A DNA stretch of 64,000 bases from a virus (Duplodnaviria > Caudoviricetes). A program made the translations under genes and the position numbers. The stretch covers positions 17,077-81,076 of IMG/VR virus record IMGVR_UViG_2974512537_000001, one strand, 5' to 3'. Positions 8,186 to 17,154 of this stretch are shown here, in pieces (position 1 is the stretch's first letter; every line of letters begins with the position of its first letter). The notes beneath the pieces are model-generated. The model was not told the DNA's origin. It saw only the letters and a program-made list of their open reading frames with translations, and searched no databases.

Positions 8186-8450
8186 AATCGTCCAACCCCA
8201 TTTCTTTAGTTTGTCCATCTTCTTTAAATCCCTCTAGCGCAATTGCTTTACCACTACCATAGATAGTTGTCACTCGTTCGTAGCCCTCATCGACCAATTG
8301 CTTCGATAATACTATGGATAAAATTGAAGTTTTATTCAGAATTACATCTTGTCCCTCTATCTTAAAAAGCGACATAAAGTATTCAAGACGGTTTGAATCA
8401 GCTTCTAATTCCTCATATTCGTCTGGACTCATAATGATTCGCTTTTCCAT
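8166..8450 (-). CDS. hypothetical protein
   Basis: GGAGGA SD; first gene behind the minus-strand promoter at about 8485-8515. Confidence 0.65.
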   Translation of the reverse strand: MEKRIIMSPDEYEELEADSNRLEYFMSLFKIEGQDVILNKTSILSIVLSKQLVDEGYERVTTIYGSGKAIALEGFKEDGQTKEMGLDDYEIKIQ

Positions 8451-8617
8451 CGCTATTTCCTCCTTTTTTGAATGTGACTATATAATAGCATGATTCTAAC
8501 ACAAAGTCAATAGTAAATTGCAAAAAAAGATAAAAATATTTTTTAGTTGACAAGAAAAGACCGTTGTGATAAGGTGATACCGTAGCGCAAAAAAGTTTAA
8601 AAAGCTAGTAAAAACTC

Positions 8618-8646
8618 TTGACAAACTTGAAAAAATGTGCTATTGT
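8618..8646 (+). promoter_or_regulatory. sigma-A-like promoter driving the large ncRNA candidate
   Basis: TTGACA(8618)-17 nt-TATTGT(8641). Confidence 0.7.
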
Positions 8647-8652
8647 ATAGAC

Positions 8653-9445
8653 ATAAAATAAATGAAAACTTAATAAGCACCAGATATTCAGCGCAGAAAA
8701 CCTACTGCGTTACTAACAAATAGGTAAGTGCCGGTATTGCTTTAGGAGATTTGAAGTAATACTGGTTGCGTCAAGGGGTAAAATTTCCGAAGCCTCTAAT
8801 CGTATGATGAAAGCTAAGTCCTTATGAAATGGATATGCTAAAGACGGAATGGAAAAGGGTCAGGGTTCGGCTGGCTTGTACGCAAATAGGCTCTGGTAGA
8901 TATGAGTTCTACGAAGTTTCCTACTAATCGGCAACAGCACTTAACTCACTCTGTAAGGCAAACTAGAATAATGCGAAAGCTAAGCTACTTGGACAGATGA
9001 CGTAGTAGTAGAAAGCTAGTGATTAGTTGAAATACTAATCAAGGATAAATCTCCCGTGAGGCGACACTATCAGCGTTGCGAACAACTCACAGTCTTTTGT
9101 TTCTTAGTCAGTGTATTAGTCTACACTTTTTACATGAGCTAAGGCAAAGGACTGTTCAGCTCAACAAATCGCATTACAAACAGCGGTGAATCATAACTTG
9201 TTCTAACTAGAAATTACATCAAACAAATCAAACAACGTCAATCTAAATATTAATTGGTTTTGGGTTTTCGGGTTGGTGACACATATGTGTGTGTCACAGT
9301 TGGTGCTGGACTAATAACGCTTATCATATACTAGCGTGACGTAGCCCGAAACACATTTTGAAAGCTGACTCTACGGCAGGAACGCTATTCAGTTGACATA
9401 CACCAGACATGAGCGGTTTCTAAGCGAAAGCGTAGTGTACAATAC
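8653..9445 (+). ncRNA. large structured ncRNA candidate (GOLLD/ROOL class; family not confirmed)
   Basis: No ORF >=60 aa; own promoter and terminator; many stems with G-U pairs and GNRA loops (8731-8765, 9021-9040, 9089-9155, 9263-9352, about 9399-9439). Confidence 0.7.
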
Positions 9446-9494
9446 TTAATAGAAAAGACACATGATTTTTAATACAATATGATACATAACTAAC

Positions 9495-9549
9495 CAGCAT
9501 ATCCATAGATACGAATATACAATCGTATTTTAAGGTATGCTGTTTTTTT
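9495..9549 (+). terminator. intrinsic terminator
   Basis: CAGCATATC...GGTATGCTG stem followed by a T7 run. Confidence 0.65.
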
Positions 9550-9648
9550 ATTATCACCTCAATAACATATTAACAGTAAAAAACACTTGCAATCTTATTT
9601 ATTTTGTGCTACAATATATAATATAGAAACGCAATAAATGATAAAGGA

Positions 9649-10911: not shown

Positions 10912-11123
10912 AAATGGTTGACTTTTTAATAAGAAAGTGTTAATATATAATCGTAATAAGATAAATATAAGGAGTGATAATGATGGTTAAAGAACCTGTT
11001 GCTTAAAAGCTGGATAATCGGTTAGTCGAAAAATAAATTTAAAAAGTGCTTGACTTATGTTTTAATCAATGTTATAATTATGAAGTAAAGTTGAATAAGA
11101 AAAAATATTGGGAGGAATTTTAT

Positions 11124-12107
11124 ATGACTGAACTTAAAGAATTAAAGGGCAATCAACTTTCAGTAACTGGTACTTTAGCTGAAAAATCACTTGAATTATC
11201 AACTGACCGTGATGGTAATGAAATTATTAAGGGATATATTCGTGTTCAAGTAGAACAAAACAATCGAGTAAACGTAGTTACTTTCAACGTATACAACCGC
11301 AAGTTCACTCGTAGTGGTTCTGAAAATAAATTGTTTGCTGGTTTTGTTACTGTTATGAATCAATACAAATCCTTACAGGACACTAACGGCAACAAAGACG
11401 AAGCAGACCGAGTTCAAATTATCGGTGATTTATCATACAACGTTTATTCATCTGATGGTGAAACCGTTCGTGAATCAAATCGTTTCCGTGCAACGACATG
11501 CCACCGTGTAAATGGTCAAGATTTAGAAGATGACACTTACGGTAGCATTCCGGCAGTTATTGAAAGCTATGACGAAGACCTTGACAAGGACGGAAATCCA
11601 ACTGGTTTATGGAAAGTTAAAGCATTCACTGTGGGTTATAATGGTCGAGTTGGTCGTGTAATGGACTTAAAGATTGCTAGTGAATTGGCGTCTGAAATGC
11701 AAGGTGCATTCCCAGAAGGAACTACCGGCGTACTTTACTACAATATTTTGAACTATGTTGTCGTTAAGAAGCAAAATGTTGACAATGATGGCGGTGGTTC
11801 ATTTGGTCAAATTCATGCAGTTGTTCAATCAAATTCTTATGTTCGTCAATTGTTAATCGTTGGTGGTGCACCGTTAGAAAATGATGAATTAGCACTTACG
11901 GAAGACCAAATCCAAAAGGCTCACGAGGAATTACGCAAACAACGTACAGAAGCAATTTCACGTGCAAACAACAAGCCAACTGCCCCTGTTAAAAACACTC
12001 AACCAGTTCGTCAAGGCGGATTTGGTAGCGCAGTAAAGAACGAATCAAACCCGTTTGCTAACAGTGGTGCAGGATTAGAAATTTCTGACGATGACTTGCC
12101 ATTCTAA
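11124..12107 (+). CDS. single-stranded DNA-binding protein
   Basis: OB-fold-like body and acidic tail ending DDDLPF; GGGAGGA SD before ATG 11124. Confidence 0.75.
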   Translation: MTELKELKGNQLSVTGTLAEKSLELSTDRDGNEIIKGYIRVQVEQNNRVNVVTFNVYNRKFTRSGSENKLFAGFVTVMNQYKSLQDTNGNKDEADRVQIIGDLSYNVYSSDGETVRESNRFRATTCHRVNGQDLEDDTYGSIPAVIESYDEDLDKDGNPTGLWKVKAFTVGYNGRVGRVMDLKIASELASEMQGAFPEGTTGVLYYNILNYVVVKKQNVDNDGGGSFGQIHAVVQSNSYVRQLLIVGGAPLENDELALTEDQIQKAHEELRKQRTEAISRANNKPTAPVKNTQPVRQGGFGSAVKNESNPFANSGAGLEISDDDLPF

Positions 12108-16850: not shown

Positions 16851-17154
16851 AAAACAGATTCGAGTAGATTTATATACTAAGAAAAACTGCGGTCAATGTC
16901 GAATGACAAAGAAACTTCTCGACCACTACGATATTGCTTACTTTGAAACCGACATTTCAGCCTTGTCAGAAGATGAAATTAACAACTTAAAGGACGAGGG
17001 ATTCTGGCAGGCTCCTATTGTTTCATTTCGTTATTTGGAAACTGGCAAGAGTGCTCGGTGGTCACAGACTGGTATGTGGGGAGGCTTCCAACCAGACGCA
17101 ATTAAAAAGTTAGCAGTCCTATATGGTACTAAACGTAATAAGGCGGTGGAATAA
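16837..17154 (+). CDS. nrdH: NrdH-like glutaredoxin
   Basis: LYTKKNCGQC, QAPIV, WGGFQPDAI. Confidence 0.85.
   Translation: MEKNKKQIRVDLYTKKNCGQCRMTKKLLDHYDIAYFETDISALSEDEINNLKDEGFWQAPIVSFRYLETGKSARWSQTGMWGGFQPDAIKKLAVLYGTKRNKAVE

Follow-up and report, generated by a model that had tools for sequence, protein, structure and literature searches.

A large pseudoknotted RNA, very probably of a new class, at the divergent gene-block junction of phages of Lactobacillus plantarum and L. brevis

Bacterial and phage RNAs that combine very large size with an intricate fold are, to our knowledge, few: the rRNAs, group II introns, GOLLD, ROOL, OLE and a few others. GOLLD, ROOL and OLE have recently been shown to form RNA-only quaternary assemblies, and their functions are poorly understood or unknown. 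A candidate addition to this very short list is described here, encoded at positions 8653-9549 of a 64,000-nt stretch of DNA (the window, whose numbering is used below) that makes up positions 17,077 to 81,076 of the 81,076-bp virus record IMGVR_UViG_2974512537_000001; in genome coordinates the element lies at 25.7-26.6 kb. The nearest relative is Lactobacillus phage P1 (Tybeckvirinae, Maenadvirus), with 89% identity across the left part of the element. ROOL, of ~580 nt, occurs in Lactobacillales and their phages, has its own promoter, and combines many multi-helix junctions with three pseudoknots (PMC5737381). The present RNA recalls it in these respects, its predicted fold having several junctions and three pseudoknots (one of them a candidate), but neither sequence nor covariance-model searches, run both ways, detect any likeness, and the place of the present RNA is among replication genes where divergent gene blocks meet. 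GOLLD (~800 nt) is likewise phage-borne, is found in Lactobacillales, and consists of a conserved and a variable half; in GOLLD, however, the 3' half is conserved and the 5' half variable, whereas here the large conserved part is a 5' core and a 3' module is dispensable, and there is no tRNA in the linker between them. Both ROOL and GOLLD are usually found near tRNA genes, in phages or prophages. The preliminary description of the window, made from its sequence alone, had already placed the element far from the tRNA cluster: this phage-borne element is 48 kb from the cluster at 57-58 kb, and in phage LP65 a tRNA cluster is 1.5 kb upstream of the RNA.

The host's RNA polymerase transcribes the ColE1 RNA II pre-primer (~550 nt) at a replication origin, and the folding of this RNA decides its function; it differs from the present RNA in being a plasmid RNA of simple stem-loops under antisense control by RNA I, and neither an antisense promoter nor anything like RNA I turned up at the present locus. 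The PE1-T transcripts of the lactococcal Ceduovirus phages (c2, bIL67 and 923 types) are ~300-400 nt long. Like the RNA described here, PE1-T is non-coding and structured, and it is an early transcript placed at divergent gene blocks, between two early promoters (PMC7150918). The Ceduovirus origin is non-coding, lies between the divergent blocks and between the first two early promoters, and depends for replication on the structured transcript; three unrelated and mutually dissimilar origin types are found at this one locus (PMC7150918). Phage K (staphylococcal Herelleviridae) makes two abundant intergenic RNAs, lnc001 and lnc002, of ~635 and 1154 nt, one of which is reported to have its own early promoter (PMC9241854); they have no reported structure or covariation, and are likened to the present RNA by description only. 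HEARO / IscB omega RNA resembles the present RNA in being a structured RNA adjoining an HNH-domain gene, but here there is no Rfam match and the HNH genes are free-standing and missing at several loci.

The element was proposed in the preliminary description to be free of open reading frames (ORFs) and richer in GC than its flanks. Both statements are borne out: the longest internal ORFs encode 32-45 amino acids (aa), with none above 45 aa, and GC is 0.40-0.42 within the element against 0.27-0.33 on either side. That it specifies a large and ornate non-coding RNA is supported by strong covariation across 18 helices in 14 sequences. These helices, H1-H18, are nested within a 5' core domain of ~530 nt on the plus strand (8653-9190), for which RNAalifold gave a consensus of 95 pairs from an alignment of 568 columns with pairwise identities of 68-98%. 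Standard pairs are formed by 96.7% of the cells at these positions, compared with 30-45% when the partner is slid by 1-3 columns; 40 of the 95 pairs have changed on both sides (3-9 in the slid controls); and the covariation score is 0.375 (0.04-0.08 in the slid controls). None of 500 shuffles reached the observed values. The folding energy of the whole region is a modest gain over shuffled sequence and is much the same for the two strands (z -2.9 for plus, -2.4 for minus), and since it does not discriminate between them the case rests on covariation. The plus strand is identified as the transcribed RNA because invariant G-U pairs would be C-A on the opposite strand. It is all in all almost certain that the element is a structured RNA gene.

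The core deserves the label ornate. H2 (8722-8724 with 9160-9162) and H9 (8865-8870 with 9078-9083) are long-range helices. Every pairing listed in the preliminary description is present in the sequence. Two of those picked out there from the single sequence proved to be conserved hairpins: that at 8731-8765 is H3 (8730-8766), a long hairpin with double changes in 7 of 12 pairs and, in isolation, a folding free energy (dG) of -19 kcal/mol (z -6.4); that at 9021-9040 is H16 (UGAUUAGU/ACUAAUCA, 9020-9041), with double changes in 6 of 8 pairs. A nested arm had been drawn at 9089-9155, and its base is the H18 arm (9093-9151; in isolation dG -26.2 kcal/mol, z -5.6), which is conserved over its basal 9 bp and varies in its apical part. 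Two GCGAAAGC tetraloops had also been noted; the first is H14 (8973-8980), a GNRA hairpin with an invariant GAAA loop in which both stem pairs covary, and the second is not conserved. Of the 568 columns, 206 are invariant, many of them unpaired, which suggests tertiary contacts or a conserved partner.

Three more helices, all on the plus strand, lie outside the nested structure of the core. They were picked from a scan of all pairs of alignment columns, which entails some selection bias; taken together they are 99.1% paired, against 41-65% when slid, and 11 of their 16 pairs are doubly changed. The first pseudoknot (PK1, 8 bp) joins the apical loop of H3 (8745-8752, GGAGAUUU) to 9047-9054 (AAAUCUCC). 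All 13 sequences covering this helix form it in full (100% paired), with double changes at five pairs, as in GGGAAAUU/AAUUUCCC and GACAGAUU/AAUCUGUC; with eight consecutive perfect columns and five double changes it stands far above the rest of the scan output. PK2 (4 bp) joins UUCC in the loop of H4 (8785-8788) to GGAA at 8846-8849, is 100% paired, and has double changes in all four pairs. The weakest of the three is PK3, a candidate 4-bp helix between AGGG (8856-8859) and UCUU (9102-9105), which is 96% paired and doubly changed at two pairs.

No family among the 4227 covariance models of Rfam 15 reached its gathering score on the element, either in the window or at eight homologous loci, and the only matches at that score were to tRNAs elsewhere. 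A permissive scan of the region gave three chance matches (E 1.4-3.9); OLE, HEARO, raiA, group I and II introns, RNase P and tmRNA were without a match there, and ARAGORN detected no tRNA-like element. Comparison with the GOLLD, ROOL and OLE models, to which the preliminary description had pointed without assigning a family, yielded no match at E<=10. The ROOL model (RF03087, threshold 99.1 bits) was silent at this level on the region and on the whole 81-kb genome, and at E<=1 on six homologous loci, whereas the L. salivarius pMP118 ROOL, used as a positive control, scored 130.4 bits. Reciprocally, a core covariance model, R1 (the models made here cover at most ~190 positions and not the full-length core), run on the pMP118 ROOL locus with filters off returned only noise at E>0.7, none of it on the ROOL strand, and nhmmer profiles of both domains gave nothing significant at this genuine ROOL locus. 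The GOLLD model (RF02032, threshold 150 bits) was likewise silent at E<=10 for the region and for the whole genome, with control genomes that matched weakly and included no genuine GOLLD. Literature searches turned up no description of the present RNA; a 2023 survey of phage RNAs contains motifs of 29-151 nt only. Covariation among relatives is here combined with the lack of any Rfam match, a combination that had been put forward as indicating a new class, and we consider it very probable that this is indeed a new class of large ornate phage RNA outside Rfam, independent at the sequence level of the ornate RNAs already known.

Searching with blastn against 50,697 phage records matched the region in phages of L. 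plantarum and L. brevis only. The siphovirus homologues, all Tybeckvirinae, are P1, P2, Gut-P1, SA-C12, Nyseid, Lenus and ATCC 8014-B2; the myovirus LP65 (Herelleviridae) also has the RNA, and the Harbinvirus myoviruses (Dionysus, Bromius, Iacchus, Lpa804 and others) carry its 3' part only. Six metagenome contigs were added by a conserved-motif scan, one of them a new lineage with at most 75% identity; motif scans of IMG/VR and of 185,579 species genomes added no genuine further copy. An extra IMG/VR match (L013), which falls inside a 316-aa ORF and has no other similarity, and eight loci from a second motif scan, including three Peptoniphilus genomes, which proved to be ABC-transporter coding sequence, were rejected as chance. 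Four complete genomes, those of Ldl1, ATCCB, LpeD and Dionysus, lack the core, whose patchy distribution resembles that of accessory RNAs. In nearly all records the homologous loci are unannotated gaps. Hypothetical proteins are annotated within the RNA of SA-C12 (SAC12_087 and SAC12_088, L003:2577-2988) and of P1 (LVP1_g056, L001:3330-3446); they are not conserved and are probably mis-annotations.

The element is oriented alike in every phage: minus-strand genes lie immediately before it and plus-strand genes after it. When siphoviruses are compared, the RNA is 72-74% identical at the nucleotide level, equal to the best-conserved of the neighbouring genes, and in the comparison with LP65 it is the sole alignable segment. 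The flanking proteins of the siphovirus and myovirus families are unrelated, from which it follows that what was exchanged and then retained is the RNA itself. A shared initiator gene adjoining the RNA in both families was considered, and was rejected because the proteins are unrelated.

The element had also been credited with its own promoter and terminator. Both are present, and the promoter is conserved. It is a sigma-70 promoter on the plus strand (8618-8646) with a -35 box TTGACA at 8618, a 17-nt spacer and an extended -10 box, TGcTATTGT, ending at 8646; it matches the consensus at 10 of 12 positions in addition to the TG, and its -35 and TGn -10 boxes align in P1, Gut-P1, SA-C12, Nyseid, Lenus and LP65. 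Transcription is likely to start near 8653. The RNA would then open with a conserved and apparently unpaired 5' leader (8653-8692, plus strand; conserved alignment columns 10-27) containing AAAUGAAAACUUAAUAAG, for which the scan of all column pairs found no partner. At the other end an intrinsic terminator (9495-9549, plus strand) consists of a 9 + 8 bp hairpin (9495-9542; dG -20 kcal/mol, z -6.6) followed by U7, and was overlooked by a simple scan because the hairpin loop is long. It is private to the present phage: in the homologues, where it cannot be aligned, the promoter of the next gene or an HNH gene follows instead. In the window, further promoters lie 3' of the element at 9587 and 9852.

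Two small sequence relationships involve these ends. An 11-nt perfect complement links 8829-8839, in the H6/H7 region of the core (AUGGAUAUGCU), with 9496-9506 in the 5' arm of the terminator; it occurs in the present phage only, where ~0.2 such pairs are expected by chance, and an alternative pairing is possible, though unproven. The motif ACUUAAUA(A/G) occurs twice, at 8664-8677 in the conserved 5' leader and at 9441-9453 at the 3' end of the 3' module. They repeat one another directly, without being complementary, and a role as end markers or as a binding site is conceivable; Dionysus has related versions of the motif, its 3' copy being ACUUGAUAG.

Beyond the core, a low-complexity linker (9191-9254, plus strand) passes from an A-rich stretch (ATCAAACAA, twice) into G/U-rich repeats (GGTTTTCG, 2.5 copies) that open a separable 3' module of ~200 nt (9255-9455, plus strand). 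An nhmmer profile of 9236-9470 found the module in 15 distinct sequences, with a single copy in the present genome; it is absent from Lenus and the metagenomic relatives of Lenus, from loci L025 and L028, and from LpeD. Its fold is partly resolved, comprising hairpin Ha, a short helix, and the conserved blocks ACGU, GAGAA, UCUAAG and ACAAUAC. Ha (GUGACAC/GUGUCAC, 9276-9298, plus strand) folds in all 15 copies of the module, with at least five unrelated stem sequences. In the preliminary description this pairing was enclosed by a UUUCGGG/CCCGAAA arm, and that outer pairing beats shuffled sequence in the window only. The 4-bp helix, found in a helix scan, is CGCU/AGCG in some copies and UGUU/GACG in others. 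Applied to MAFFT alignments of the module, RNAalifold gave no or almost no consensus structure, because the hairpins occupy shifted registers. A terminal UACAC/GUGUA stem reported earlier exists in the present phage and is not conserved.

Comparison with the homologues identifies 9456-9494 (plus strand) as a non-conserved tail. It contains the single TACATA (9483-9488) from which 3' maturation of the RNA had been proposed; there is indeed one copy, but the count is close to chance, the tail has no homologue, and maturation at this site is unsupported. TACATA is depleted across the 64-kb window as a whole, where the two strands together hold 24 copies and shuffled sequences predict 42.9 +/- 5.9, an observation that is silent on maturation of the present RNA.

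As to function, the reading that we favour, with a probability of roughly one half, is of a folded RNA particle that works in trans, much as has been suggested for ROOL and GOLLD. Host RNA polymerase would start near 8653 at the strong conserved promoter and stop at the 9549 terminator. The core, with its 18 or more helices, several multi-helix junctions, GNRA tetraloop and two to three pseudoknots, would lock into a compact fold, and the ~200-nt 3' module would be an accessory joined to it through the low-complexity linker. During early infection the RNA would then bind a conserved host component or self-assemble, and it would act neither as an mRNA, nor as a leader, nor as a DNA site. A trans-acting particle is favoured since the RNA is kept with compensatory changes, is exchangeable, and has many invariant unpaired bases.

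Several points weigh on the other side. The sequence comparisons establish the fold, the transcribed strand, the promoter and terminator signals and the distribution of the RNA, whereas it is by analogy that we infer action in trans, a partner or multimers. Only ~15 distinct sequences are available, all from phages of L. plantarum or L. brevis. Four public RNA-labelled runs contain low-depth fragments over the RNA and its flanks that are probably DNA and are uninformative on transcription or RNA ends, and a search of public runs returned assembled contigs only. As the terminator is not conserved, the RNA may in relatives belong to a longer transcript; the 3' module, too, may be a separate functional unit. 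Above all, the element lies at the divergent gene-block junction by replication genes in every phage, a position that fits a replication origin at least equally well.

The RNA could instead be the transcript of such an origin, folding early in infection and acting in cis as a pre-primer or R-loop organiser after the models of PE1-T and ColE1 RNA II. This is possible, if doubtful, and its position at a divergent junction beside replication genes makes it a serious rival. The element sits exactly at the strand switch between a 25-kb block of minus-strand genes and a plus-strand block, with genes for DUF3310, a deoxynucleoside kinase and a helicase on its left and, on its right, small ORFs, a DUF1064/resolvase-like gene and a 'replication protein' resembling single-strand DNA-binding (SSB) proteins. 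The layout of the c2-type origin is reproduced: the blocks diverge, the region is bounded by two promoters of one block (8618 and 9587/9852), and it contains no ORF or ribosome-binding site. The cumulative GC-skew minimum, at 8400-8700, falls at the element, but gene orientation switches there too, which confounds the skew signal. Genes for a helicase, deoxynucleoside kinase and SSB-like protein are near in siphoviruses, as are those for a helicase and a helix-turn-helix/DnaD-like protein in myoviruses. An origin would rely on host enzymes and could in consequence be swapped between unrelated phages of one host, and two non-homologous large structured regions do occupy one Herelleviridae locus (LP65 as against Harbinvirus). 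In L. salivarius, deletion of ROOL cut the copy number of a megaplasmid (PMC5643018). Against an origin, the region shows neither iterons nor DnaA boxes nor a clear AT-rich unwinding element; these phages encode their own replication proteins; 18 helices and pseudoknots far exceed what a primer needs; and the core is absent from related phages, though other origin types are possible there. PE1-T, moreover, belongs to a variable part of Ceduovirus genomes, in which the template of the c2-type transcript is itself the variable part (PMC7150918), whereas the present RNA, of 530-900 nt and pseudoknotted, is conserved like the best neighbouring genes.

The fixed position of the RNA at the junction by replication genes, together with its exchange between two phage families, nevertheless provides what the known ornate RNAs lack, a concrete functional hypothesis: tentatively, the RNA might be an origin organiser, part of a host-specific 'origin cassette' traded between unrelated L. 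plantarum siphoviruses and myoviruses. If so, this would be the first concrete function for a giant ornate RNA, and it would suggest a role in replication or copy number for ROOL-like RNAs. The carriers are culturable virulent phages of a tractable host, which opens the way to direct testing by genetics and cryo-EM.

That the RNA belongs to ROOL or GOLLD as a far-diverged member, rather than founding its own class, is improbable. The sizes are similar (530 nt for the core, 574 positions for the ROOL model), the hosts are again phages of Lactobacillales, multi-helix junctions with three pseudoknots are a feature of ROOL (PMC5737381), a common 3' module behind differing 5' regions recalls the halves of GOLLD, and the LP65 copy lies 1.5 kb from a tRNA cluster; but RF03087 and RF02032 are silent at E<=10 although the ROOL control reaches 130 bits, and the reciprocal profiles are silent too. 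A role in cis, as leader or regulatory RNA of the early genes that follow, is equally improbable. Most homologues have no terminator before the next genes, but the window has a strong one with separate promoters beyond it, the downstream genes are wholly different between phages (HNH genes, small ORFs, pnuC/nadR), and 530-800 nt with pseudoknots is far larger than known leaders. A feature of the DNA alone, such as a homing-endonuclease target or recombination hotspot without a functional RNA, is scarcely credible, for although HNH cassettes home at the 3' edge in both phage families, this leaves the compensatory changes, including one-strand G-U pairs, across 18 helices and pseudoknots unexplained, and the presence of HNH genes fits an RNA gene as well, given that such targets are typically conserved and functional.

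Homing endonucleases typically target conserved functional sequences. The HNH proteins at these loci are free-standing homing endonucleases of ~205 aa, annotated as I-HmuI-like. Their genes lie 3' of the module in P1, Gut-P1, SA-C12 and Nyseid, interrupt it in Lpa804, and are absent at the locus in the present window, Lenus, LP65 and 8014-B2. The enzyme of the myovirus Lpa804 is 84% identical in amino acid sequence to that of the siphovirus Gut-P1, and 62-63% identical to those of SA-C12 and Nyseid; DNA homology of the cassette starts inside the 3' module (L016:2476-3337 compared with L002:3281-4042 and with 3178-4047 of L003/L004). A cassette that is shared between Lpa804 and siphoviruses, with homology from within the module, points to homing with co-conversion across phage families. 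Homing at the module fits a conserved sequence common to co-infecting phages, and explains the mosaic alleles of the module.

In Harbinvirus the 3' module is preceded, at the same locus, by a different non-coding region of ~650-900 nt. That this is a diverged homologue of the core was considered and rejected, since the short model R1 finds nothing there. The region is located at L008:1660-2440 in Dionysus and L014:2357-3000 in LpeD (Elpedvirus), and is found also in L015-L017. In the distant LpeD, 35 of 199 predicted pairs are preserved through double changes, and where it was scanned (Dionysus, L008) there was no Rfam match at E<=1. Judged by these sequence comparisons, the Harbinvirus/Elpedvirus region is probably a second, unrelated large structured RNA.

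The SSB-like 'replication protein' to the right of the element is a 353-aa protein encoded at 11046-12107 of the window. It has no Pfam match and belongs to PHROG family phrog_2367, which has no assigned function. Its relatives are annotated as single-strand DNA-binding proteins (27-32% identity), and come from siphoviruses of ~74-96 kb and from two larger SPbeta-like phages, with Enterococcus, Staphylococcus, Bacillus and Lactobacillus as hosts. Used as a query in IMG/VR, it brought back known phages only. In Ldl1 (KM514685) a 1.2-kb gap upstream of the SSB-like gene was considered as a locus for the RNA and rejected, since it holds small ORFs and a tRNA; the tRNA (L036:4423-4493, 50.5 bits) and several of the small ORFs are unannotated. 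Lastly, ~120-140 nt directly upstream of pnuC, which encodes a nicotinamide riboside transporter, are ~84% conserved among LP65, Dionysus and LpeD (L006:3797-3912, L008:2743-2882 and L014:3121-3261). This stretch has no Rfam match at E<=1, and could be a promoter or a cis-regulatory element.

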